From an uncultured bacterium (lineage in GTDB: Bacteria; UBA8481), in NCBI GenBank assembly GCA_964499705.1, contig CAZCME010000007.1:62001-126000 (forward strand): a stretch of DNA of 64,000 nucleotides. The letters are read 5' to 3'. Both the position numbers and the translations under genes were made by a program. Under the pieces are notes generated by a model. That model searched no databases and had not been told where the DNA came from. It saw nothing but the letters and a program-made list of their open reading frames with translations. Position 1 is the first letter of the stretch. Every line of letters begins with the position of its first letter. This document shows positions 10,169 to 27,369 of this stretch, in pieces.

Positions 10169-11269
10169 ATGAGCAGAATTCTCATTATAGCGGGCGATCC
10201 GTCAGGGGACGCCCACGCTGCGGAGATGGTCCGGAGGTTGAAGACGATGTCGCCGGACGAGGAGATCGCCGCGGTCGGCGGACCGGCGCTGGCGGCGGCG
10301 GGGGCGAAGCTGATCGCCAATCTCGTCGGGGAAGCCGTGACCGGTTTTTCGGAGGTGATCGCGCATCTTCCGCATGTCCTGAAGCATTACGTGACGGCGC
10401 TGACGGCGGCAAAGCGCGCCGACCTTGTCGTCTTCGTGGACTATCCCGGATTCAACCTCGCTCTGGCCAGGGACATTTTCAAATTGTCGCCCCGTCCGAA
10501 GATGCTCTGGTATATCGCTCCCCAGGTCTGGGCCTGGAACAAGGGGCGGACCGGCGTCATGAGCCGGATCCTCGACAGGATCGCCGTCGTCTTTCCGTTT
10601 GAGGAGAAGATCTTCCCCAACGCGGAGTACGTCGGGCATCCGCTTCTTGATCTTCCTGTTCCTGAACCGATCGCGGAATTCGACGGATCGCGCGTCGTGG
10701 CGCTCCTGCCGGGTTCGCGGAAGAACGAGATCAGCCGGCACATCGGCGTCATGATCGATGCGGCGAAGATTCTTGCGCGGCGCGGCTGGCGGCCCGTCAT
10801 CTCCATGTCGAATCCGGATTTCCTGCCGCGGTTCGAGCGCGCCGAATGCGAGCTCTACTCCGGCAGTCCCCGCTCGCTCCTGGCTTCCTCCGAGGCGGCC
10901 ATCGTGAAGTCGGGCACGTCCACTCTGGAGACCGCGCTTCTCGGCAAGCCGCTCGTCGCCATCTACCGTCTCTCGTGGATCAGCTACATGATCGGAAAAG
11001 TGCTCGTCGACATCAAGCACTTCGCCATGCCGAACATTCTCCTGGAGGAAGAGGCCGTGCCGGAATTATTGCAGCAGCAGGCAACGGCGGAGCGGATCGT
11101 GTCGAAGCTGGAGCACCTGGACAAGTCCGGTGCCGAAAAAGCATTCTCGCGCCTGCGGGATATTCTCCAGAATCGCGGCAGCGCCCAGCGCACGGCCGAA
11201 ATCTGCCTTGAATTGCTCGGCAAGCGACAAGTCGCCGCACGACAAGTCGTATCTCCTCTCCCCGCATGA
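10169..11269 (+). CDS. lpxB: Lipid A disaccharide synthase
   Basis: AGDPSGD, VDYPGFN, PQVWAW, FPFE, VGHPL, LLPGSR, SGTSTLE, VPELLQ. Confidence 0.95.
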   Translation: MSRILIIAGDPSGDAHAAEMVRRLKTMSPDEEIAAVGGPALAAAGAKLIANLVGEAVTGFSEVIAHLPHVLKHYVTALTAAKRADLVVFVDYPGFNLALARDIFKLSPRPKMLWYIAPQVWAWNKGRTGVMSRILDRIAVVFPFEEKIFPNAEYVGHPLLDLPVPEPIAEFDGSRVVALLPGSRKNEISRHIGVMIDAAKILARRGWRPVISMSNPDFLPRFERAECELYSGSPRSLLASSEAAIVKSGTSTLETALLGKPLVAIYRLSWISYMIGKVLVDIKHFAMPNILLEEEAVPELLQQQATAERIVSKLEHLDKSGAEKAFSRLRDILQNRGSAQRTAEICLELLGKRQVAARQVVSPLPA

Positions 11270-13095
11270 TCCTACGGACAGCGGAACGATTTCGCCCCGC
11301 GCGCATTCCGCTCTTCTGGGCCAACGTCGCCATGGTCGTCGTCGTCGCCACGAACGGCATCTCCCTCGTGACGCTCCAGCCGATCATCGACCGGATCTTC
11401 GTCTCCCCGGAGGATCCTCTTGTCTACGCTGTCCCGTACTCCTCGTTCGTTCTGACCTCCTCGAAGACGAGACTGCTGATGATTCTCACCGCGTTCTTCG
11501 TCGCCTCGCGCATGATCTATTCCATCTCGCTCTACGCGCAGCGCTATCTCATGATGATCGCCGGAGAAAAGATGGTGCATGAGCTCCGGATCGATCTCTA
11601 CCGACAGATCCTCTCGCTCCCGCCCGCGTTCTACGCGAAGCATCGCTCCGGGGAACTCGTCTCGAACCTGACCTCCGACCTCGGGCTCGTCCAGCACCTG
11701 GCTTCGACCATCACGGCGGACCTGATCCGGAGACCGTTCGAGATCGTCTTTCTCATCGCACTTCTCTTCTGGATCAACTCGGGGCTCGCGTCGACGTCGC
11801 TCCTCGTAGCCCCCTTCGTCGTCCTCATCGTGCGGCTCCTGGGCGGATCGGTCCGGCGCCGGTCCGGAAAGATGCAGGCGCGAATGGCCGATATCGCGGG
11901 CAATCTCGGAGAAACCGTCTCGGGGATCCGGATCATCCAGGCGTTCAACGCGGAGCAGACCCTGTTCACGCGCTTCATGAACCTGGCGCAGGATTATGTC
12001 GCGCGGGCGCGCCGGACGTATCTGCTGACGGCGCTGGCGACGCCGGCGACGGAAACGGTCACGGCCCTGGGGATCGCGGCGATCATCATCTACGGAGGCC
12101 GGGCGGTCATACACGGCGATATTTCCACGGGCGAATTTTTCGCCTTCATGGCGATCCTGATGGCGACGTACCAGCCGGTGAAGACCTTTGTCAATGCGCT
12201 CTCGGAAGCCGGGAGGGCCGCCGCCAGTCTCGACCGGGTCTACGCGATTCTCGATACCGTTCCGTCGATCCGCTCCGACCCCGGCAGCGGCAAGCCGGCG
12301 GTTTTCGCCGATGCCCTGCGGATCGAGGATGTGTCCTTCTCATACTTGAGCGGGAAAGATTCCGTGGAAGCGCCTGTGCTCTCTGACATTTCCCTCTCTG
12401 TCAGGAAGGGCGAAACCATCGCGATCGTCGGACCGTCCGGTTCCGGCAAGACAACTCTCCTGTCGCTCATCCCGCGGTTCCACGATCCGAGCTCGGGACG
12501 GATTCTTCTCGACGGCGTCGACTTGAAGGAGCTCGACCTGGTCTCGCTCCGCCGGTTGATCGGGATCGTCACGCAGGATACGTTTCTCTTCCACGACACG
12601 ATCCGCTCCAACATCGCGCTCGGAAGACCTCGCTCCACGGACGCGGAGATCATGGCCGCGGCGAAAGCGGCGCACATCGCGGACTTCATCCGGGCGCTTC
12701 CGGAAGGTCTCGACACGATGGTCGGCGAAAGGGGCACGCGCCTTTCCGGCGGAGAAAAGCAGCGGATCGCGATCGCGCGCGCTCTTCTCGTCGATCCGCC
12801 CATCCTGATTCTCGACGAGGCGACGAGCTCCCTGGACAGCGAATCGGAGCGGCATGTCCAGGCGGCGATCGAGGAGTTGATCGAGGGAAGAACGACGCTC
12901 ATCATCGCGCACCGGCTCTCCACGATCCAGCGCGCGTCGAGGATCGTTGTCGTGTCGGGCGGGCGCATCGTGGAGCAAGGCTCGCACGACGTCCTCCTGT
13001 CCGGGCGAGGACTCTATGCCCGGCTGTATGAGATGCAGTTCGCGGGCATGCCCGGGCCGGGCGCGCCTGACCCGGGCAAACCTGGCCGGGGATGA
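11266..13095 (+). CDS. msbA: ABC exporter, MsbA-like lipid A flippase
   Basis: TMD plus NBD: GPSGSGKT, LSGGEKQR, ILDEATS; located between lpxB and lpxK. Confidence 0.85.
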   Translation: MILRTAERFRPARIPLFWANVAMVVVVATNGISLVTLQPIIDRIFVSPEDPLVYAVPYSSFVLTSSKTRLLMILTAFFVASRMIYSISLYAQRYLMMIAGEKMVHELRIDLYRQILSLPPAFYAKHRSGELVSNLTSDLGLVQHLASTITADLIRRPFEIVFLIALLFWINSGLASTSLLVAPFVVLIVRLLGGSVRRRSGKMQARMADIAGNLGETVSGIRIIQAFNAEQTLFTRFMNLAQDYVARARRTYLLTALATPATETVTALGIAAIIIYGGRAVIHGDISTGEFFAFMAILMATYQPVKTFVNALSEAGRAAASLDRVYAILDTVPSIRSDPGSGKPAVFADALRIEDVSFSYLSGKDSVEAPVLSDISLSVRKGETIAIVGPSGSGKTTLLSLIPRFHDPSSGRILLDGVDLKELDLVSLRRLIGIVTQDTFLFHDTIRSNIALGRPRSTDAEIMAAAKAAHIADFIRALPEGLDTMVGERGTRLSGGEKQRIAIARALLVDPPILILDEATSSLDSESERHVQAAIEELIEGRTTLIIAHRLSTIQRASRIVVVSGGRIVEQGSHDVLLSGRGLYARLYEMQFAGMPGPGAPDPGKPGRG

Positions 13096-14087
13096 CGGAC
13101 TACCTCTTCCGCTCCCGCCTGCTCCGTCTCGCGGCGGCGCCGCTGTCCGCCGCTTATCTCGCCGCGTTGAAGCTCCGCCCCGCCCCCGAGGTCACGCGCC
13201 TGGCGGCGAAGGTGATTTCCATCGGCAATATCCACGTCGGCGGCACCGGCAAGACGCCGCTCGTATTGGCGCTGGCCCGACGATTGAAGGCGCTCGGCGC
13301 GGAACCGGCCATCGTGTCGCGCGGTTACCGTGGCCGCCTCTCCGCCGTGGGCGCCGAAGTCACGGCGGATTCATCCGCGGATGATACGGGCGACGAGCCG
13401 CTCGAGCTCGCCCGGGCCCTGGAAGCCGTTCCCGTCTTCATCGGACGCGACCGCGTGGAGGCCGCGAGAAAAGCGATGCTGAAGGGGCGCGTCCTCATTC
13501 TCGACGACGGCTTTCAGCACCGGCGGCTTCACCGCGACCTCGATGTCGTCGTGATCCCGGGATCATCGCGGCCGCGCGATCAGCGCATGCTACCGCTGGG
13601 ACGATTGCGGGAGCCGCTCCCGGCATTGCAGCGGGCGGATGCCGTGGTCCTTGTGCGGGAGGTCGGCGAGGAGGAATCCGATCCGACAGCCTGGAAGGAG
13701 TGGACGGACGCTCCGATCTTCACGGCGGAGCGGATCATCGACCGCGTTCGCCCGCGGAGGGGAACGGTCGATCCTGTCGCGCTTCTCGGAAGAAAGGTGG
13801 TCGTCTTTTCCGGCGTCGCGAACCCTTCGCGTTTTCTGCGCGTCGTGAAATCCGCGGGAGCGCGGATCGTGGAGGACATCGCCTTCGCCGATCATCACGT
13901 CTACACGGATCAGGATCTGAATCTCCTGAACATTCTTGTCATGACGCACGACGCCGTCGCCGTGACGACGGAAAAAGACGACGCGCGCCTGGGCCATCGG
14001 CCCCTGCCCTTCCCGACGGCCGTTCTCTCCACTTCGCTCACGTGCGATGCCTTTCTCGATTTCTGCGAACGAAGAATCCCCCGATGA
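13092..14087 (+). CDS. lpxK: Tetraacyldisaccharide 4'-kinase
   Basis: SIGNIHVGGTGKTP, SRGY, GDEP, LDDGFQH, LPLGRLREP, TTEKD. Confidence 0.95.
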   Translation: MTDYLFRSRLLRLAAAPLSAAYLAALKLRPAPEVTRLAAKVISIGNIHVGGTGKTPLVLALARRLKALGAEPAIVSRGYRGRLSAVGAEVTADSSADDTGDEPLELARALEAVPVFIGRDRVEAARKAMLKGRVLILDDGFQHRRLHRDLDVVVIPGSSRPRDQRMLPLGRLREPLPALQRADAVVLVREVGEEESDPTAWKEWTDAPIFTAERIIDRVRPRRGTVDPVALLGRKVVVFSGVANPSRFLRVVKSAGARIVEDIAFADHHVYTDQDLNLLNILVMTHDAVAVTTEKDDARLGHRPLPFPTAVLSTSLTCDAFLDFCERRIPR

Positions 14088-14938
14088 AGAACGTTCGTTA
14101 CTACGCGGAGTATCTCTTCCTGTCGAACTTGATCCGTCTCCTGGCCCTTCCCCGCCGCTCGCCGACCCGCACGCTCGGCACCGCGCTCGGCCGCGCCGTG
14201 TATGCGACCGGAGTACGGCGCCAGGATGTTCTCGCCAACCTGAAGACCGCCTTTCCGGAAAAGAGCGACGGGGAACGGAGCGACCTGGCGATCAAATGCT
14301 TCGAGCACCTGGGCAGGGTGATCGTGGACACGGCATCGGTTCCGAAATGGACCGACGAGGAGCTGCGAAGCCGGATAACGCTGGAGGGATGGCATTACCT
14401 GGAGGAAGCGCGCGCCGCCGGGCGCGGAGTCATCATCGCAACCGGACACCTCGGCGTCCCCGATCTCGGCGGAACGCGGATCACCATGGAAGGCGCGCGC
14501 GTGACGGCCGTGTACCAGGGAGTCAAGAATCCATATGTCGACAAATGGATCTTCACGATCAGATGCCAGCGCGGCGCCACCGTCACGAAGCGCGGCATCG
14601 GATTCCGGAAGGTGTACGACGCGCTGAAGAGGAACGAATGCGTCGCGATTCTCGCCGATCAGGACGCCGGTCGAAACGGGCTCTTCATCCCCTTCTTCGG
14701 CCGCACCGCGTCGACCATGAAGGGCCCCGCGGAATTCGCGCTGCGGACCGGAGCGCCGATGCTGACCTGCTTCGGGCCTGTCATCGACGGCAATTACGCG
14801 GTGAAATTCGAGCCGATCATCCCCCACTCCGATGTCGAAACGATGATGCGCGAGTACAACCGCCGTCTCGAAGCCGCCATCCGCCTCTGGCCCGAACAAT
14901 ACTTCTGGCTCCACCGCCGCTGGAAAACGCTGCAATAA
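14084..14938 (+). CDS. Lipid A late acyltransferase (LpxL/HtrB family)
   Basis: ATGA overlap with lpxK; HLGVPD (Hx4D), ADQD, FFG, PEQYFWLHRRWK. Confidence 0.88.
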   Translation: MKNVRYYAEYLFLSNLIRLLALPRRSPTRTLGTALGRAVYATGVRRQDVLANLKTAFPEKSDGERSDLAIKCFEHLGRVIVDTASVPKWTDEELRSRITLEGWHYLEEARAAGRGVIIATGHLGVPDLGGTRITMEGARVTAVYQGVKNPYVDKWIFTIRCQRGATVTKRGIGFRKVYDALKRNECVAILADQDAGRNGLFIPFFGRTASTMKGPAEFALRTGAPMLTCFGPVIDGNYAVKFEPIIPHSDVETMMREYNRRLEAAIRLWPEQYFWLHRRWKTLQ

Positions 14939-15633: not shown

Positions 15634-15957
15634 CTACTCCTTCTTTTTCTTCTTCTTCTCTTTCTCCTTCTTCTCCGGCTTTTTCTTTTCCGCGTCCGCC
15701 GCCTCCGCGGGCTTCGTCTCTTCCTTCTTTGTCGTCTCCGGGGAAACGGTCTCCGCCGCCGGCTCCTTCTTTACATGATGAGCGGGCTTCGAGTCTTTCG
15801 AATACCAGCCGCTGCCCTTCAGGTGGAATGCCGCGAGCGAGATGACGCGCTGCGCCTTCTTGCCGCACTTCGGGCACTTGGCGTGAGGCGGCGCCGAAAA
15901 CGAACGCATCTCCTCGAAATGTTTTCCGCATGTGCATGCGTATTCGTAAATGGGCAT
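15634..15957 (-). CDS. FmdB-family zinc-ribbon protein with Lys/Glu-rich tail
   Basis: MPIYEYACTCG..FE..CPKCG..FHLKGSGWY. Confidence 0.9.
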   Translation of the reverse strand: MPIYEYACTCGKHFEEMRSFSAPPHAKCPKCGKKAQRVISLAAFHLKGSGWYSKDSKPAHHVKKEPAAETVSPETTKKEETKPAEAADAEKKKPEKKEKEKKKKKKE

Positions 15958-16030: not shown

Positions 16031-17035
16031 TCAGAACGCCATGTTCAATCTGGCCTGCGCAAACCCTCCGTCATCGATATTCAAGCGGTTGTAGTGCCGG
16101 TCGCCGTAATCGAGCCCTTCGTACCAGAAGCGCTGGAACGCGTAACCGCCCGCGAGTTCGAAGGACGTGCCGGGGCTTAGCGTATATCGGAATCCTCCCG
16201 TCACACGCTTCTCGTGGTACGTCAGCTTGTCGTCGAGGTCCTTGTTGGAGCTGCGGTAATAGTCCTGCTGGTCCCAGTCGAATCCGACGAACTGGACGAT
16301 CTCCTTCGTGAGATTGCGGCCGGCCTCCGTGGAGAGTTTTCTCAGCAGGAGGTAGGAGGTCTTCCAATACGTCTTCTCGTTGAAGCGCAGGTCCATCATC
16401 GCCAGCGGCGCTCCGATCACGAACGTGTACTTCGGTGTGGGCTTCCAGATATAGGCCGCGCCCGGCAGGGGGACGTCGTGGAGATAATCGCGCGTCGAGA
16501 GGTAGTGGACATAGAAGAGCCATTCGTCGCGGTCGCCGCTCGGCGTCCTCGCGAAGAGGTTCGCGCCGACCCGGACGTCGTTCTTGCTGTCGAAGGGATC
16601 GTCGCTCGGAGCCATCACGCTGAAGTTGTATCCCAGCTTCCAGTGACCGGGTGTGTTCCACTTGTAGGTGACGCCGAGCCCGACATCGAAGAGCGGATCG
16701 GGGAATTCGCTGATGGTATTGGGAAGAAGCGCGGGTGTACCGAAATCCCGCATACCCACCTTCACCTGGAACGAGAGGATCCGGTCCGTAATGTTCGGCA
16801 TGTGAATGGGCACGTTGAGATCGAGATCCGTGGAGGCCATCTTGAACCGGCGCCGGCGGAAATCCGTGGCCTCCTCTGAATAGATCCGCGTGCCGAGAGC
16901 GAATGTCGCGCTCTCGGCGGAGACATCGGTCAGGAGAATGTCGGCCATTTCCTGCGGAGACCGCTGCGCGCCCGCCACGGGCGCCAGCATCAAGAGAAGC
17001 AGCGCCGCGCCCCAACAACCCCGTTTGCTCACCAT
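16031..17035 (-). CDS. Hypothetical outer-membrane beta-barrel protein
   Basis: Signal peptide; aromatic-rich alternating strands; terminal Phe (ARLNMAF). Confidence 0.65.
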   Translation of the reverse strand: MVSKRGCWGAALLLLMLAPVAGAQRSPQEMADILLTDVSAESATFALGTRIYSEEATDFRRRRFKMASTDLDLNVPIHMPNITDRILSFQVKVGMRDFGTPALLPNTISEFPDPLFDVGLGVTYKWNTPGHWKLGYNFSVMAPSDDPFDSKNDVRVGANLFARTPSGDRDEWLFYVHYLSTRDYLHDVPLPGAAYIWKPTPKYTFVIGAPLAMMDLRFNEKTYWKTSYLLLRKLSTEAGRNLTKEIVQFVGFDWDQQDYYRSSNKDLDDKLTYHEKRVTGGFRYTLSPGTSFELAGGYAFQRFWYEGLDYGDRHYNRLNIDDGGFAQARLNMAF

Positions 17036-17178
17036 ACGGGTTTTGTATCAGAGCCGTCCCGGTCTGGCAAGCGTGGCGGCTTGCGGCGGCTCACCGCGTG
17101 GCGGATTACCGCGCTGCTTGCCGCTGTACGTCTCTTGCTTTATTCTCCTCACATCCCATTTTCCACGGAGGTCACATC

Positions 17179-17730
17179 ATGTCTCATTCCAGGTTTCTTC
17201 TCCTGTCGGCCCTCATCGCGGTCTTTCTCGCTGGTTTCGCGCTCCCTTCTCATTCGGAGGCCGATGCCACGAGCGAGGAAGAAAGCGGCGGCGGCGTCTT
17301 CAACTGGCTCTCGCAGATGAAGGTCAAGATGATGGCGCAGCAGTACGGGCTCGACACGGGCACGACTGAGAAGCTCATGGCGATCCTGAAACAGGAGGCC
17401 GCGGACAAGAAGAAGACCAACCTTGAGATCAAGTCCCTCATGACGGAAATGGAAGCCTCGCTCACCGGCGCTCCGACCGACCAGGATCTCATGACGAAGA
17501 TGAACGCGATCCAGGAGAAGAAGGTGGAACTCGCGAATATCGAGAACAAGACGTGGAACAACGTCGTCGAGCTCCTCGGCGCGAAGAAGGCGTCCGAATG
17601 GATCCTCGCCCGGCGCGGTGTCGTGGAGCGGATGAGCGGCGCGGTCAAGCGCGCGAATCAGCCCCAGTCGGGTTCCGATACCGGGACTCCCGTGAAGCCG
17701 GTCGGAGCTCCGCGTCGCGGAAACTGGTGA
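17179..17730 (+). CDS. Hypothetical periplasmic helical protein (Spy/CpxP-like pattern)
   Basis: GGAGG SD before ATG 17179; signal peptide; charged helical body. Confidence 0.55.
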   Translation: MSHSRFLLLSALIAVFLAGFALPSHSEADATSEEESGGGVFNWLSQMKVKMMAQQYGLDTGTTEKLMAILKQEAADKKKTNLEIKSLMTEMEASLTGAPTDQDLMTKMNAIQEKKVELANIENKTWNNVVELLGAKKASEWILARRGVVERMSGAVKRANQPQSGSDTGTPVKPVGAPRRGNW

Positions 17731-17734
17731 CCTT

Positions 17735-20209
17735 TCAGCGCTCTCCCATCTGAACGAAGAGCGGATGATGCAGTTCCTTGCGGAAGCTCGGTTGCCCCGC
17801 GATGATCTTCGAACCGCGTAGACGCTCGCCGCGCGCTTCCCGGTAGCCTTTCTCGATCGCGCCGCGAACGAGATTGTCCGCGAAATCGAGCATGCAGAGC
17901 TGGGGCGGTGACGGGCGGAGCGTGAAGATCGCGACGTCGCGTTCGCGCGCGCGCGCGTCGAGAAGCTGCGCCTGGCCGTAGAGATATTCCAGCGCGCCCG
18001 CGGTGTTCCCCACGAGATGACCCATCTCCTGCCGTTCCGCGTCCGGCGAAACTTCCAGGACAATCACATGGGTCGCTCCCCACTTCACCGCCGCCTCGAC
18101 AGGGCTGTTGTGCGCGAAGGCTCCGTCGATCAGTTCCACACGGTCACCGCGGCCCGGAAAATCGGAGATGAGGCGGGGAGGAAATACCGGGAAGACGGAA
18201 CCCGAACCCATCACGACGTCGAAGAGGAGGGAGGGATGATCGGCCAGCGCCACGCCGTGCGCGCCGTAGGCCGGCGGAGCGGCCCTGCTGCCGCGCGATG
18301 CCAGATGGAAATAGAGATCGTTCGGCAACGAGGCCGTCCGCGAAAGACAGGAGGCCGTCACCACGAGATCACGCTTCAGAAGTCCTTCCCTGTTCACGAT
18401 CCCGCTCAATGATTTCAAGGTCTCGGCGGCGGATCCGGCCAAGCCGCGCGACACCCGGGCCTCTTCGCTCGCCTTCGACATCACAAGCCGGCTGAATTGC
18501 TCCGCATAAACGGTCTCGACGCCCGCTCCGGAACAGAGCGTCTTCTCCACGAAGAGCGCGGTCCATGTATGAAGGAGCGGAATCGCCACGGCGCCGAAAA
18601 TGAGCGCGATCCGCAGGCGGGGCAGAAGAGGGGTCGCCTCTTCAAGACCAACCCGCTTCAGCGACCGGCGCGACGCATAGACCAACAGAAGTGCGCCGGC
18701 AACGAGGAGAATCCATCCGCCCCAACGCGCGCCAAGCGTCAGGAGAAGAAAGAGATGATGCATCGTATGATTCGTGCCGAGCCGGCTCCACGACGGACGA
18801 AGCTCGCTGCCCAGCAGGATGAGAAACGCCGCGCCCGCCCAGATGATGACGCACGCGATGAAGGCGCGCCGCCGGCGCCCCGCGGCTCGATTACCGATGA
18901 ACAACCCGAGCCAGACCACAAGGCAGGTCTGCCAGAATCCGGAGAGAATTTCCAGGAACGGCGAGAGCCGGACAAGATCGCGCTGGTCGAAACCATCCCA
19001 TGCCTTGCCGACCGACTCGATGCCCTCCGGAGTCGCCGTGATTCCCAGCGCCGTCGGAACGGCGTTGATCGCTCCGCCCGACGTTCCGACGACCAGCGCG
19101 ATATCGAGCCTCGAATCTCCCGTGGATTCGCGCAAGCCTCGAAGCGCTTCCTCGATCGCGGCCAGCGCGCCGACCTCGAAGGCGCACTTCGCGCCGCCGC
19201 CCGCGAGCACGACGGCCAGCCGGAAAGGCCGCGCCTCACTCCCCTGGCGCACATACTCCTCGAACATGCCGAGTATTTCCGCGAGCGTCACGGTCAGGTA
19301 TTCCGGAATATCGGGCGCGAGGTGAAGCTCGTCCATCCACCCTCGCACCGCCGCGTATCGTGTCTCGGCGTCGTCGACGCGGCGAAAAGCATGATGGCCC
19401 TCCGCATCCTCATGCTGAAGCAGGAGCCGCTCCACGAGCGCGGCATCGCGGAAGCCGCGGCGCGCGACGACGGCATCTCCCGGTATGGCGAGCGCCTCCA
19501 GTTCCGGGATCGCGACGGCACGAAAAGGTTCCGTGCTCGATCCCTCCCGCGCGCGCGCGCCCTCGTCATCCCAGACGAACGCAACCGGCTCGCGGCCTTC
19601 CAGCCGCTCCGCGACGAGCTGCGTCGAATTCCTGTGCGAGTACGTGTATTGAATCCGGTCGGGATCGAGGCTTACGCCTAGTTTCCTCAACATGAACTCG
19701 GGAGCGATCCGTCCCGAGACGGAGAGCGGATGGACGAAGAGCGGTTGGAGTTTTCCCGCGCGGAAACCGGCCATCACATCAGCGGACGAGCGGAGATTCG
19801 ATTTGTCGCGAACGAGGCAAGCGGAGCGATACTCGAAGACATAGGGACTGCCTGGCGAAGCGGCCGGCGAAGGGCGGCCGATCGTCGCGAGATACATCGA
19901 GAGCGGACCGGAAGAATCGCGGTCGTTCATGATCTCCGCGTAAAGCCCCGGCGAAAGAACCGCGATGTCGATATGGCCGTTGCGGAGCCACGCGAGGACT
20001 TCGCCGTAGCTGCCTGCCGCGACCTGGAACTTCAAGACGCCCCGCGAGGCGCGGGTGAAGTCCCGGAAGAGAGGCTGATACAGCGCCATCTCCCCGCGAT
20101 AACTCTGTATGGTGACGATCCCGACGCGCACATCCCGCGCCGCGTTCGCGCTCGGGGTGGATGCGAAAATCAAAAGCGAGACGAGGATGAAGGATGCGCG
20201 GAAGTTCAC
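17735..20209 (-). CDS. Fusion of a PhnD-like substrate-binding domain and a patatin-like phospholipase with a transmembrane insert
   Basis: Signal peptide; SYGEVLAWLRNGHIDIAVLSP, HPLSVSGRIAP, SHRNS, IPGDAVVAR (PhnD-like); GGGAK, GTSGG, DGA (patatin). Confidence 0.8.
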   Translation of the reverse strand: MNFRASFILVSLLIFASTPSANAARDVRVGIVTIQSYRGEMALYQPLFRDFTRASRGVLKFQVAAGSYGEVLAWLRNGHIDIAVLSPGLYAEIMNDRDSSGPLSMYLATIGRPSPAASPGSPYVFEYRSACLVRDKSNLRSSADVMAGFRAGKLQPLFVHPLSVSGRIAPEFMLRKLGVSLDPDRIQYTYSHRNSTQLVAERLEGREPVAFVWDDEGARAREGSSTEPFRAVAIPELEALAIPGDAVVARRGFRDAALVERLLLQHEDAEGHHAFRRVDDAETRYAAVRGWMDELHLAPDIPEYLTVTLAEILGMFEEYVRQGSEARPFRLAVVLAGGGAKCAFEVGALAAIEEALRGLRESTGDSRLDIALVVGTSGGAINAVPTALGITATPEGIESVGKAWDGFDQRDLVRLSPFLEILSGFWQTCLVVWLGLFIGNRAAGRRRRAFIACVIIWAGAAFLILLGSELRPSWSRLGTNHTMHHLFLLLTLGARWGGWILLVAGALLLVYASRRSLKRVGLEEATPLLPRLRIALIFGAVAIPLLHTWTALFVEKTLCSGAGVETVYAEQFSRLVMSKASEEARVSRGLAGSAAETLKSLSGIVNREGLLKRDLVVTASCLSRTASLPNDLYFHLASRGSRAAPPAYGAHGVALADHPSLLFDVVMGSGSVFPVFPPRLISDFPGRGDRVELIDGAFAHNSPVEAAVKWGATHVIVLEVSPDAERQEMGHLVGNTAGALEYLYGQAQLLDARARERDVAIFTLRPSPPQLCMLDFADNLVRGAIEKGYREARGERLRGSKIIAGQPSFRKELHHPLFVQMGER

Positions 20210-20652
20210 TCTCGTCCCCGGAGCGCCCTCGCGATTTCGCGCTGGGAGTCGCGCTTCTTCATCGTCTCCCGCTTGTCGTGGAGCTCCTTGCCCTTGCAGA
20301 GTCCGAACTCCACCTTCACGAGCCCGCGCTTCAGGTACATCTTCAGCGGCACGAGAGTCATGCCTTTCTGCTCGCCCTGCCCGATGAGCCGCTTGATCTC
20401 GGCCTTATGCATGAGCAGTTTTCTCGTGCGTGTCGGCTCGTGGTTCATGATGTTGCCCTGGTCGTACGGAGCGATGTGGCAATTGAGGAGCCACGCTTCG
20501 CCGCGCATGATCCGGACGAAGGAATCGCGGAGCTGGATCCGGCCGGCCTTGGCCGATTTCACCTCCGTCCCTTTCAGGGAAATTCCCGCTTCGAATGTGT
20601 CCGTGACGAAATAGCGATGGCGGGCGATCCGGTTGTCAGCAAGAAGAGTCAA
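20206..20652 (-). CDS. smpB: SsrA-binding protein
   Basis: EAGISLKGTEVKS, RTRKLLMHK, GKELHDKR. Confidence 0.97.
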   Translation of the reverse strand: MTLLADNRIARHRYFVTDTFEAGISLKGTEVKSAKAGRIQLRDSFVRIMRGEAWLLNCHIAPYDQGNIMNHEPTRTRKLLMHKAEIKRLIGQGEQKGMTLVPLKMYLKRGLVKVEFGLCKGKELHDKRETMKKRDSQREIARALRGRE

Positions 20653-23917: not shown

Positions 23918-24001
23918 GCCGAGGTGGTGGAACTGGCAGACGCGCTAGCTTCAGGAGCTAGTGTCCGCAAGGACGTGCGGGTTCAAGTCCCGCCCTCGGC
24001 A
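23918..24001 (+). tRNA. tRNA-Leu(CAG)
   Basis: GCCGAGG/CCTCGGC acceptor stem; CTAGC-TTCAGGA-GCTAG anticodon arm; long variable arm; GTTCAAGTC; no encoded CCA. Confidence 0.96.
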
Positions 24002-27000
24002 GATTTCCTGATTTCCGCCTGATTGCCCTCAACGCGCCCGGCCAGCAGATCGAGGATCGCCCTGATCGGGCCTTCCGCGCGCTCGGGACGCTTCTTCAGC
24101 TCATAGCCGAGATCATGCATCAACCGGTCCAGCATCGAGAGCCTCAGGAGAAAATCGAACTCCTCCTTGTCGGACGGGAGAAACCGGCCGGTCGAGGCGG
24201 CGGATTGATACGCTTCCAGGAAAATGTCGGAGATCCAGAGATGCCATGTCCGGAGCCATCCCGCAACGTGGGGTGCCTTTTCGGGCGTCACGGCTCCCTG
24301 CGCGATCGACTCTCTCAGGGCCGTCTGCGCGGCGTGGAGAAAGGACTGGAGCATGCCGGCGACATCGCGGAGCGCGGGACGCTTGTGCCGGCGCTCGCTC
24401 ACCGGTTTCCGCGGATCGCCCTCGAAGTCCATGATGACGAAATCCTTGCCGGTGTGGAGCAGTTGCGCGAGGCGATAATCGCCGTGGCAGCGGATCAGGA
24501 GCGCCGCGATCTTTCTCTGGACGATCTCGCGATAGATCGCCAGCAGCGCGGACTCGAGGCCCAGCAGATTCTCGGCGGACGGCCTCGCTGATTCGGGTAG
24601 GACCTGCAGCGACTCGCGCAGCAGAGCCAGGGTCCTGCCGGCCGTGTTCCGCAGCGACTGGTACAGGGATCTCTGATAATGAGGGCTGAATCGTTCCGGC
24701 GCGAATTCGGGGAGACGGGGTTCCGATGCGAGCGCCAGATGCATCTCCGCGGTTCTCCGGCCGAGCATCCTTGCGGATTCCAGATAGGCGCCGATCATTT
24801 CCTCGATCTCGGGAGGAAGCTCGACGTGCGACGGCAGAAGAATCGAGCCCGGCGGTTCCGGGAGCGGACGCGGATCCGTCCGCGTCATCATGCGCTCGAT
24901 GAAGCTGTGGAGATGATCGAGCGTGTAGGCCCAGGCCGTGCCCTGGTTCACGACATAGTCATGCAGTACGGCAAGCGTCCGGGGCGCCTGCCGTCCGGAA
25001 CGATACTGCACCGCGCCGGCGATTCGAAGTGACGGGAGCGATTCCGCGTGATCGTTCAGAAAGAGCCCGATCTCCAGGTCGGGATTCGGTTCATTCTCCA
25101 GTTTCCAGAAGATCTTCATCATGAACCTCTCGCCGAAGGCAACGCAGAGATTGGACCGTTTCGTCTCCACCGGCGGTGAAGGAAATAGGCTCGATCCGGC
25201 TGGAGGCTTTTTAAAGGAAGGGAGCCGGATTCCGACAGCTTCGCCTTGTCGTCCCTTCCATCGCCGACGGCCGGAGATGAGATCGAGCATTCCGGCGGAG
25301 ACCGCCGTGTCAGCGCCGGCATCATGGAGAATTCCCTCGCGCCCGCGAGCGCGCAGGATGCCGATGACATCGCGCGGAGCCCGCTCGCGGATTTTTTCCG
25401 CCGCTCTGCCGTCGGCGAATCCGATCGGCAGCACGTGCGTCTCCGCCACGTCTTCCTGGAACCGGACCTCGACGATCGCGATGCGGAATTGCGCTTCGGG
25501 AGCCGAGGGTGTCAACAGATCGACCAGGTTCGCCGCCGTAATCTGCCGCGGCTGGCCAGCCAGGCTCTGCCTGCTCATGAGCCACTCCGGCAACGCCTCC
25601 TCAAGATTTCTCAAAGCTGGATCGGCGAAGATCGCGTCCCATCGACCGTCCACGGTGAATGTCACCTCCGGAATCGGCCGGTGTTCCAGGGCAACGGCAG
25701 CCCTGGTTTTACTGAGTTCAAACCACATGAACGCATGCGGTCCCAGGCTCAGGAAATAGGAACGCTGCGTCACCACGGGAAATTCCGTTCCCCCGATCAT
25801 TTCAACCGGCACCATGCCCGTGAACGCGGAGAGATCGAGTTCCACATACTGCACGAACCGCGACAGGTTCGCGACGACCAGGAGAAGCTCGCTGTCGTGT
25901 TTCCGGAGAAAGCAGAGCACCTTGTGATTGGCCGGTCGGAGAAACTCGATGGTTCCTCGGCTGAAGGCCGGGTGGCGTTTCCGCAGGGAGATCATGCGCG
26001 TCATCCACCAGAGGAGCGAACTGGGATTCGAAAGCTGCGACTCGACGTTAACCGTCTCGTAGTGATACTCGGGATCGATGTTGACCGGAAGATACAGCCG
26101 CTGCGGATTGGCCTCGGAGAATCCCGCGTTCCGGTCCGGGCTCCACTGCATCGGCGTCCGCACGCCGTTGCGGTCGCCTAGATAGACGTTGTCGCCCATC
26201 CCGAGTTCGTCGCCGTAATAGATGACCGGCGTTCCCGGCAGGGAGAACAGCAGGCTGTTCAGGAGCTCGATGCGGCGGCGGTTGTTCTTCAGGAGAGGCG
26301 CCAGCCTCCGCCGTATTCCCAGGTTGATGCGCGCATGCGTCTCGTGCGCGTACATCCTCCACATGTAATCCCTTTCCTCGTCCGTCACCATCTCCAGTGT
26401 GAGCTCGTCGTGATTCCGGAGAAAGAGCGCCCATTGCGAGGACGAGGGGATCTCGGGTGTCTGTTCGAGAATATCGATGACGGGCAGCCGGTCCTCCATC
26501 GAGAGCGCCATGAAGAGGCGCGGCATGATCGGGAAATGGAATGACATGTGGCACTCGTCGCCCTCCCCAAAATACGCGGCGGCATCCTCCGGCCATTGGT
26601 TCGCTTCCGCGAGGAGCATCCGCCCGCGGAATTTCCGGTCGACGTGGCGCCGCAATTGCTTCAGGAACGCATGCGTCTCCGGTAGATTCTCGCACGACGT
26701 CCCTTCGCGCTCGTAGAGATAGGGGATCGCGTCGAGACGCAACGCATCGACGCCGAGATCAAACCAGAAATCGACGACCTTGAAGAGACCTCGGATGACG
26801 GCCGGATTGTCGAAATTCAGGTCCGGCTGGTGCGAATAGAAACGGTGCCAGTAGTACGCCTGGGCCACGGGATCCCACGTCCAGTTGGATTGCTCGAAAT
26901 CCTTGAAGATGATCCGCGCATCCTTGTACTTGTCCGAATTCTCGCACCAGACATAGAAATCGCGGTGCACGCTTCCGGGCGGCGCGTACCGTGCGCGCTG

Positions 27001-27369
27001 AAACCAGGCGTGCTGGTCCGACGTATGATTCATGACGAGCTCCGTGACGACTTTCAGGCCCCGTTCATGGGCTTCCCGGAGAAGAATCTTGAAGTCAGCC
27101 AGCGTGCCGTAGGAGGAAAGAACGTCGCAATAGTCGCCGATGTCGTATCCGTCGTCGCGGAGCGGAGAAGGAAAGAACGGGAGAAGCCAGATCGCGGAGA
27201 CGCCGAGATCGTGGAGGTAGTCGAGTTTCTCCGTCAGGCCCCGGAAGTCGCCGATTCCATCGCCGTCGATATCGCGGAAGGCTCGCACATGCAGTTCATA
27301 GATGACGGCATCCTTGTACCAGTCATCCGCCCCGCTCCCCTTCACAGCCTTGTCTCCCCCGCCGTGCAT
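23983..27369 (-). CDS. treS: Trehalose synthase (GH13) fused to a maltokinase-like domain
   Basis: WYKDAVIYE, RFYSHQPDLN, LRLDAIPY, LAEANQW, LRNHDELTLE; C-terminal HGDY/DFEG/RDVAGM. Confidence 0.93.
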   Translation of the reverse strand: MHGGGDKAVKGSGADDWYKDAVIYELHVRAFRDIDGDGIGDFRGLTEKLDYLHDLGVSAIWLLPFFPSPLRDDGYDIGDYCDVLSSYGTLADFKILLREAHERGLKVVTELVMNHTSDQHAWFQRARYAPPGSVHRDFYVWCENSDKYKDARIIFKDFEQSNWTWDPVAQAYYWHRFYSHQPDLNFDNPAVIRGLFKVVDFWFDLGVDALRLDAIPYLYEREGTSCENLPETHAFLKQLRRHVDRKFRGRMLLAEANQWPEDAAAYFGEGDECHMSFHFPIMPRLFMALSMEDRLPVIDILEQTPEIPSSSQWALFLRNHDELTLEMVTDEERDYMWRMYAHETHARINLGIRRRLAPLLKNNRRRIELLNSLLFSLPGTPVIYYGDELGMGDNVYLGDRNGVRTPMQWSPDRNAGFSEANPQRLYLPVNIDPEYHYETVNVESQLSNPSSLLWWMTRMISLRKRHPAFSRGTIEFLRPANHKVLCFLRKHDSELLLVVANLSRFVQYVELDLSAFTGMVPVEMIGGTEFPVVTQRSYFLSLGPHAFMWFELSKTRAAVALEHRPIPEVTFTVDGRWDAIFADPALRNLEEALPEWLMSRQSLAGQPRQITAANLVDLLTPSAPEAQFRIAIVEVRFQEDVAETHVLPIGFADGRAAEKIRERAPRDVIGILRARGREGILHDAGADTAVSAGMLDLISGRRRWKGRQGEAVGIRLPSFKKPPAGSSLFPSPPVETKRSNLCVAFGERFMMKIFWKLENEPNPDLEIGLFLNDHAESLPSLRIAGAVQYRSGRQAPRTLAVLHDYVVNQGTAWAYTLDHLHSFIERMMTRTDPRPLPEPPGSILLPSHVELPPEIEEMIGAYLESARMLGRRTAEMHLALASEPRLPEFAPERFSPHYQRSLYQSLRNTAGRTLALLRESLQVLPESARPSAENLLGLESALLAIYREIVQRKIAALLIRCHGDYRLAQLLHTGKDFVIMDFEGDPRKPVSERRHKRPALRDVAGMLQSFLHAAQTALRESIAQGAVTPEKAPHVAGWLRTWHLWISDIFLEAYQSAASTGRFLPSDKEEFDFLLRLSMLDRLMHDLGYELKKRPERAEGPIRAILDLLAGRVEGNQAEIRKSAEGGT

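Follow-up and report, generated by a model that had tools for sequence, protein, structure and literature searches.

A stretch of 64,000 nucleotides from an uncultured bacterium (contig CAZCME010000007.1 of assembly GCA_964499705.1, positions 62,001 to 126,000; hereafter the window, whose numbering is used throughout) carries on its reverse strand a gene for a fusion protein in which a PhnD/AioX-type substrate-binding domain precedes a patatin-type lipase domain that is itself interrupted by four predicted membrane helices (Table 1). The gene is present in a single copy in the host genome. Its GTG start (20209-20207), the earliest ATG, GTG or TTG past the upstream stop of the open reading frame, overlaps the TGA stop of smpB (20208-20206) in a shared GTGA, and the N-terminus of the protein, MNFRASFILVSLLIFASTPSANA/ARD, displays by eye the tripartite n-h-c pattern of Sec signals and an A-x-A motif. 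An initial annotation of the window, made from the letters alone, had proposed a signal peptide followed by a PhnD-like domain, patatin motifs, helices and a DGA motif. Pfam boundaries and motifs agree with this order in every detail, and a hydrophobic N-terminal stretch is also found in 29 of 31 aligned family members, the other two appearing truncated; for the fusion protein, hydropathy and visual inspection served to recognise the signal peptide and the membrane helices. The four helices that had been put at about 18550-18960 were placed by the structural model and hydropathy at residues 417-554 (18548-18961), and the arginine clusters noted after helices 1 and 3 are present (AAGRRRRA at about residues 443-450 and SRRSLKR at residues 512-518).

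Table 1. Elements of the fusion gene and the overlapping smpB gene in the window.
Feature	Position	Strand	Residues	Remarks and basis
Whole fusion open reading frame	17735..20209	-	1-824	824 aa, 824 open codons, GTG start
GTG start codon and signal-peptide-like N-terminus, MNFRASFILVSLLIFASTPSANA	20141..20209	-	1-23	Hydropathy; cleavage site by eye
PhnD/AioX-type substrate-binding (Venus-flytrap) domain	19376..20122	-	30-278	Pfam PF12974, Foldseek, pocket alignment
Conserved helical linker, consensus VSLDEIGxxLLHYARS	19220..19369	-	281-330	Alignment consensus, model helices
Patatin N-half: GGGAKC oxyanion-hole loop and GTSGG nucleophile elbow	18962..19219	-	331-416	Pfam, motifs, alignment
Four-helix membrane insert	18548..18961	-	417-554	Hydropathy, model helices, loop charges, helix counts
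Patatin C-half and C-terminal extension: DGA, HNSPxEAA	17738..18547	-	555-824	Motifs, alignment, model
smpB (context only, outside the system)	20206..20652	-		Pfam SmpB, E 5e-62

The N-terminal domain matches the Pfam family Phosphonate-bd (PF12974) over residues 30-278 (E 4e-19, 69.4 bits against a cut-off of 27). With the model as query, Foldseek returned template-modelling scores (TM, by target) of 0.75-0.79 to the PDB structures of PtxB, HtxB, ArrX and AioX, those of PtxB, HtxB and ArrX with bound ligand, and the matches also included PhnD and the glycerol-1-phosphate binder GpxB (9lf9); the domain has the substrate-binding-protein (SBP) fold on which the initial annotation had staked its reading. 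Judged by the NCBIfam models, where it reaches 30.7 bits on TIGR03431 (cut-off 261.1) and 34 bits on TIGR01098 (cut-off 112.05), the fusion protein is not a PhnD orthologue. Its putative pocket is made up of Y68, T/S86, Y106, Y127, S163, S165, G166, H192 and D214. In a HMMER alignment of the family profile with the known structures, S163-x-S165-G coincides with the anion loop, which reads Ser-Thr-Ser-Gly in PhnD and Ser-Phe-Ser-Gly in ArrX, while H192 falls on the pocket histidine, Y127 on Tyr138 of ArrX and Tyr93 of PhnD, and Y68 on the first pocket tyrosine. Over 175 distinct family sequences, which served for all residue counts given here, S163 is invariant and the others are strongly conserved (G166 in 173, Y68 in 170, H192 in 169, S165 in 167, Y106 in 164, D214 in 154 and Y127 in 153). 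The position of AioX Cys106, the cysteine that marks the arsenite sensors, is occupied by Thr or Ser in 153 of the 175, and D215, acidic in 120, aligns with Glu177 of PhnD, which is described as touching the amine of 2-aminoethylphosphonate (PMC5908839). The same source describes a side of the pocket, common to PhnD and AioX, that holds the oxyanion (Tyr88, Tyr131, Ser161, Ser163 and His192 in AioX numbering; PMC5908839). Because the residues of this PhnD/AioX oxyanion pocket, which serves binders of phosphonate, phosphite, arsenate and phosphate, are conserved, the domain most likely retains binding of a tetrahedral, phosphate-like oxyanion (phosphoryl or phosphonyl), and the phosphorylated ligand suggested initially is compatible with the alignment to ArrX and PhnD.

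The lipase part is matched by the patatin family PF01734 over residues 333-707 (375 residues, E 1.1e-11, 45.7 bits against a cut-off of 27.7), and since this match spans positions 1-190 of the 191 in the profile, the domain is complete and contains a large insertion. Its motifs are GGGAKC (residues 337-342), GTSGG (375-379) and DGA (695-697), with the catalytic Ser377 encoded at 19079-19081 and Asp695 at 18125-18127. Conservation of the catalytic region is nearly absolute: S377 and N382 occur in all 175 sequences, D695, H700 and each glycine of the GGG in 174, and K341 in 172. By sequence the protein aligns to CapE in two parts, residues 23-74 for the N-half and 161-200 for the C-half, from which we infer that Ser377 and Asp695 would assemble into a dyad; Foldseek matched the patatin part to the CapE filament (9ion_D) with a probability of 1.00, yet the TM by target reached no more than 0.54 across 490 columns. 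Known defence lipase models reach the protein in the N-terminal motif region only, with 15.1 bits on the CBASS phospholipase CapV model NF041079 (cut-off 200) and 27 bits on the DS2_1 antiphage phospholipase model NF053870 (cut-off 400). Lipase matches in PADLOC are likewise partial (best E 2.5e-8, residues 327-391), and NCBIfam contains no model specific to the fusion family. As a side observation, Cys342 (19184-19186) follows GGGAK in 174 of 175 members where CapE has a glycine, a family-specific change of the oxyanion loop.

Between Ser377 and Asp695 lies the membrane insert. Hydropathy peaks at residues 421-439, 449-467, 486-510 and 528-554, and the AlphaFold2 model, confident as a single body (mean predicted local distance difference test, pLDDT, 85.6; predicted TM score, pTM, 0.86), forms helices at 417-439, 445-468, 481-491 plus 494-516 (kinked) and 528-554. 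No hydrophobic segment was detected by hydropathy between the binding domain and the patatin; the linker connecting them is modelled as helices at 281-294, 302-305 and 309-322, and its conserved helix runs directly into the strand bearing the oxyanion-hole loop. On average over the 31 aligned sequences, loops 1 and 3 contain 2.0 and 4.3 Lys plus Arg against 0.8 in loop 2, so that the positive-inside argument made initially from the two arginine clusters holds family-wide. We also counted helices between Ser and Asp with a crude hydropathy counter that disregards a buried, conserved stretch of the patatin some 35 residues ahead of the DG: four were found in 194 of 296 sequences, and the long-insert, Acidobacteriota-type forms peak at six and eight. 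At the mode, Ser and Asp are thus not parted by the odd number of helices against which the initial annotation had warned. The PhnD-like binding-protein fold is extracytoplasmic. Six lines agree in a predicted extracytoplasmic position for the binding domain as well as the two halves of the patatin: the signal-like N-termini, the type of fold, the lack of a helix between the domains, the loop charges, the even modal helix count and the natural variants described below.

Further features of the sequence were noticed along the way. Loop 2 (residues 468-485; 18755-18808), which is predicted to lie on the periplasmic side, carries a family-wide motif, PW..LG.NH.LHH.W, in which W474 (156 of 175), H481 (157) and H485 (168) are conserved and two conserved histidines lie beside the membrane surface. 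Longer inserts between Ser and Asp (about 390-600 residues with roughly 6-8 or more hydrophobic helices) are found in Acidobacteriota-type members (loci L053, L065, L070, L074, L076, L078, L079 and L081; proteins such as P0153, P0175 and P0196). In the C-terminal part, residues 724-754 (17948-18040), modelled as a helix with pLDDT below 50, include Q746, Q748 and D751, which are invariant in the 31 sequences; this conserved stretch may be a mobile lid or a regulatory element.

The fusion is not a peculiarity of this window. A search of 5.8 billion proteins yielded 131 matches, and more than 100 clusters at 90% identity carry the fusion; among the 120 best of the 131 nearly all are about 780-870 amino acids long and contain both Pfam domains. 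The best non-self identity among the matches listed is 44%, and the named sources are Pirellulales, Planctomycetaceae or Rubripirellula. A scan with one genome per species (185,579 species) gave 110 relatives, by title all metagenome-assembled, which belong mostly to Planctomycetota and otherwise to Pyrinomonadaceae/Acidobacteriota, Vulcanimicrobiota, Verrucomicrobia, Bdellovibrionales and others. When a profile of the lipase plus helices was run against 1.84 billion cluster representatives, 216 clusters (50% identity) were recovered at E <= 1e-30, and in nearly all full-length matches among the best 150 of them the module starts at residue about 300-430, which leaves space for one upstream binding domain. 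The architecture search that the initial annotation had recommended therefore finds the fusion in 216 clusters and in about 110 species genomes, and its presence in relatives removes the suspicion, voiced at the same time, of a chimera. Layout and motifs are shared by 31 of 31 aligned members, a conservation that is not due to chance.

The gene was absent from 40 other genomes searched as relatives of the host, only 4 of which share its family or order, and the closest match to the RNase R of the host (48% identity) bears the label Candidatus Hydrogenedentota. In a protein tree (FastTree) the family groups by phylum label, and the window protein stands alone on a long branch at an unresolved fork. 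Overall, the fusion family looks old, accessory and often lost.

Natural variants of the architecture are few. Two proteins, P0231 (1098 aa) and P0240 (1160 aa), consist of a DUF4062 domain (E about 1e-25), one hydrophobic helix, the binding domain and the helix-split patatin. They have no signal peptide ahead of DUF4062, and their binding domain is divergent, with the pocket histidine lost in P0231. Their nearest relative among the fetched loci (L071, Phycisphaerales) has a signal peptide in the place of DUF4062. This form accounts for 2 of the 150 best representatives, on a divergent branch, and a search of metagenome contigs with P0231 gave no full-length relative, all matches being generic DUF4062 proteins that align to its residues 1 to about 180. 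The binding domain is seldom missing altogether: P0137 (547 aa, on a contig of 9371 bases) is one example, in which a signal-like N-terminus leads straight into the linker helix and the lipase. P0382 retains a shortened binding domain of about 190 aa. A search for proteins of 237-756 aa gave 53 matches, most of them fragments or truncated calls; P0212 begins exactly at the patatin strand, and P0111 and P0385 were discarded as short variants, as both begin within the binding domain. Two loci that seemed to encode longer N-termini (L070 and L057) were likewise rejected, the open reading frame having been called upstream of the true signal peptide. Patatins of 370-400 aa from Vulcanimicrobiota match profile positions 4-90 only and have no membrane helices, and are therefore unrelated soluble patatins and not stand-alone relatives. 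We note in addition that atlas clusters of 450-490 aa resemble the lipase-helix module. In several loci the family gene lies in two frames or contains one in-frame TGA (L019, L062, L063, L072 and L077, as well as G044:C18, G299:C95 and G300:C72); these copies are either sequencing errors or decayed genes.

Investigation of the genomic neighbourhood revealed no conserved neighbour, the commonest neighbour family occurring in 8 of 80 related loci. A Pfam tally of 121 immediate flanking proteins was heterogeneous (DUF1501 6, TPR 5, SpoIIE 4, GDPD 2), with neither a defence nor a transporter family among its 25 commonest families. In neither set are ABC transporter genes, a sensor kinase or a regulator conserved near the family gene. 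The coupling to rnr-smpB that the initial annotation had inferred stands in one part only: the GTGA overlap is real, but a functional link is not borne out, homologues of smpB or rnr being found near the family gene in 0 of the 80 related loci, which makes the overlap local to this window. The fusion gene is a stand-alone unit.

Some lineage-limited or local associations may nevertheless be recorded. A membrane-bound glycerophosphodiester phosphodiesterase (GDPD) is encoded directly upstream in two related Planctomycetota genomes (L013:3938-5809 and L014:4034-5890), and a PlsC-type acyltransferase with the H(X)4D motif within a few kb in L032, L034, L072, L075 and L080, both confined to their lineages. 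In the window itself lpxK (PF02606) followed by a lipid A acyltransferase gene (PF03279) is located at 13092-14938, about 3 kb from the fusion gene, with an ABC-type gene (11266-13095) just before lpxK; this envelope-lipid neighbourhood is not conserved with the family gene elsewhere. Other genes nearby encode a Zn-ribbon protein (PF09723) with a long Lys/Glu-rich tail (15634-15957, reverse strand) and two proteins with signal-like N-termini and no Pfam match (16031-17035, reverse strand, and 16903-17730, forward strand), the second of which converges on the end of the fusion gene. Further away (23983-27369, reverse strand), the first half of a protein of 1128 aa contains a catalytic domain of the alpha-amylase family, and its long C-terminal extension gave no Pfam match at E <= 1e-5.

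The reading that we favour, at a probability of about 0.5, is that of a periplasm-facing, helix-anchored patatin acyl hydrolase that is switched, via the linker, by a phosphate-like ligand on the fused domain. It builds on the computed architecture, conservation, fold, pocket and catalytic residues and topology signals, and extends them by inference to the export of the protein, its lipid substrate, its gating, the class of its ligand and its role in the cell. Sec export would bring the binding domain and both halves of the Ser377-Asp695 patatin to the periplasmic face of the cytoplasmic membrane, where the four helices, as a pair of hairpins in the cap region of the patatin between the Ser and Asp elements, would anchor the enzyme in the bilayer and probably supply it with lipid from the outer leaflet. 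Closing or opening of the binding domain would then be relayed by the conserved linker helix and toggle the lipase on or off. The likeliest use would be a turnover or remodelling of membrane lipids tied to the supply of phosphorus compounds. A role of the domain as periplasmic sensor has precedent, because PF12974 sensors exist both free (AioX, ArrX) and fused (TtrS-type kinases); AioX is reported to be the sensor for AioS (PMC5908839, PMC8050422).

Several observations weigh against this interpretation. The gene is patchy in the families that carry it (9 of 151, 2 of 101 and 6 of 16 genomes), which is odd for general lipid homeostasis, and neither phosphate-regulon nor lipid-synthesis genes are consistently near it among the 121 flanking proteins. 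In the model, the 10-residue block with Asp695 has a mean pLDDT of only 70 and residues 724-754 stay below 50, and the crude counter gave odd helix numbers in 72 of 296 sequences, which we attribute to misses at the threshold although they may be real. Finally, the conserved pocket is as well compatible with binding of a substrate or product, given that PhnD-fold proteins have been described that bind glycerol phosphates (GpxB, PMC12718374) and sterols (BstB, PMC10942540).

This last point leads to an alternative that we regard as possible yet rather doubtful, namely that the binding domain is a handle that grips the phosphate head group of a (lyso)phospholipid substrate, or a glycerophospho product, while the patatin cleaves off acyl chains, in a periplasmic enzyme that eats or recycles phospholipid. 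The conserved oxyanion pocket, the reported ligands of GpxB (glycerol-1-phosphate) and BstB, and the alignment of D215 with the amine-contacting Glu177 of PhnD would all suit such a handle, as would the GDPD gene just upstream in two loci and the PlsC-type acyltransferase nearby in five. The GDPD neighbour is, however, confined to one clade (2 of the 121 flanking proteins), the acyltransferase is not adjacent in all five loci, a transporter for uptake of the product is not linked, and closure of the PhnD type buries the anion, which would be awkward for a diester on a membrane lipid. An error of assembly or annotation, by which a transporter binding protein was joined to a lipase, or a decayed gene, might be suspected in a metagenome-type assembly of 45 contigs, the more so as in several related loci of other assemblies the gene is split into two pieces or has an in-frame TGA. 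This explanation has next to no chance and is refuted by the conservation of the fusion across relatives (more than 100 clusters at 90% identity, 216 at 50%, about 110 species genomes); moreover the frame is intact, the catalytic residues are invariant, and the domain junction is spanned by contigs from two public runs, and the start by one, without a single difference, among Logan contigs from four runs that are short, none covering the whole stretch alone and X2-X4 being partly uncovered.

The protein might also be an effector of conflict or suicide, a membrane-destroying lipase restrained until a periplasmic danger signal, such as a phosphorylated metabolite lost by a damaged cell, binds to the sensor. 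Patatin lipases are indeed described as the commonest CBASS effectors (PMC12480259), the models of the CBASS and DS2_1 lipases give weak matches, the gene is accessory and patchy, and the rare DUF4062 variants recall 2026 preprints in which DUF4062 is described as a TIR-like NADase with a part in anti-phage defence. Patatin, phospholipase and transmembrane are absent from the main text of these preprints, whose supplements might hold a patatin fusion. We nonetheless consider an effector of this kind unlikely: the scores on the defence models are far below cut-off (27 vs 400 and 15 vs 200 bits) and confined to the N-terminal motif region, the top 25 Pfam families of the flanking proteins include no defence family and no partner is conserved, the tree tracks phylum labels rather than rampant transfer, and the DUF4062 form is limited to 2 of the 150 best representatives on a divergent branch. 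Carried further, to an improbable speculation, the whole family would be an envelope-spanning danger sensor in which a phosphorylated compound foreign to the periplasm, for instance a cytoplasmic metabolite or nucleotide leaking through a phage or toxin lesion, unleashes the lipase on the membrane and the cell kills itself, with the DUF4062 forms as two-effector immune proteins. If this were true, the DUF4062-helix-SBP-patatin proteins would deplete NAD+ inside and hydrolyse lipid outside under the command of a single extracytoplasmic sensor, and the danger sensor would be a one-protein, outside-sensing abortive-infection device of a kind so far undescribed.

Full-text literature searches found no publication on the SBP-patatin-membrane helix architecture, in line with the initial annotation, to which no characterised protein of this build was known. 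The parts are known; their combination is uncharacterised, in that the SBP sensor would share its side of the membrane with the enzyme to which it is fused and the patatin fold is divided by membrane helices. Extracytoplasmic binding-protein sensors are described as signalling to transporters, kinases, chemoreceptors and cyclic-di-GMP enzymes, patatin not being mentioned in that account (PMC8050422). If the switched-hydrolase reading is true, the fusion of an SBP domain to a hydrolase on the same side would constitute a one-component sensor-enzyme that is wholly periplasmic, and the helix-interrupted patatin would carry its own solution to the problem of how a soluble lipase fold gains access to lipid in the bilayer. 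A true response to phosphate-type compounds could explain how phospholipid turnover is controlled post-translationally in Planctomycetota, Acidobacteriota and other poorly studied phyla, and the protein might find use as a ligand-switchable lipase module. The idea is directly testable because the family is compact, the targets for mutation are obvious (S377, D695, S163 and H192) and the candidate ligands are few.

Compared with known systems, the protein shares with CapV and CapE the Gly-rich oxyanion loop, GxSxG serine and DG aspartate of a predicted patatin fold. A small ligand controls CapV and CapE, as we propose for the fusion protein. Those enzymes are soluble, cytoplasmic and activated by cyclic nucleotides, whereas the SBP domain of the fusion protein is putatively exported and its cap region holds four membrane helices. 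With 15.1 bits it stays far below the 200 required on the CBASS lipase model, and it has no conserved partner gene. Neuropathy target esterase (NTE, PNPLA6) is likewise a membrane-anchored patatin esterase fused to ligand-binding domains (of the cyclic-nucleotide type), but it is a eukaryotic protein with a cytoplasm-facing catalytic domain and an N-terminal anchor instead of an insert in the fold, and its ligand domains are of another type. Kinases of the TtrS/ThsS type are membrane proteins that include, as a covalent part, a PhnD-like PF12974 domain as extracytoplasmic sensor, and clusters of TtrS are structural neighbours of residues 25-300 of the fusion protein; the ligands of these kinases are reported to be oxyanions (PMC5408782). 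Their signal crosses the membrane to a cytoplasmic kinase, whereas the enzyme of the fusion would share the periplasmic side of its sensor and be reached through a soluble linker helix. AioX, ArrX and ArxX are closest in the sequence of the pocket region ("dplSvSGr" vs "dpmSfSGh" and "ytysHseSlr" vs "ytysHdnSlr") and have in common with the fusion that side of the pocket which is made up of Tyr, Tyr, Ser, Ser and His, the function of the AioX type being described as sensing and not transport (PMC5908839). They are free proteins that dock on a kinase encoded next door, while the fusion gene has no kinase or regulator conserved nearby and its product lacks the equivalent of Cys106. With PhnD, PtxB and HtxB the protein shares the fold and the anion-binding loop; it is not orthologous to them on the basis of its model scores, and no ABC transporter genes are conserved alongside. 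Finally, PlpD of Pseudomonas aeruginosa (patatin-POTRA-Omp85) is described as an envelope-delivered, membrane-tethered bacterial patatin (PMC11116518), which resembles the arrangement proposed here; PlpD has a C-terminal beta-barrel in the outer membrane and no sensor, whereas the fusion protein carries alpha-helices inside its catalytic domain.

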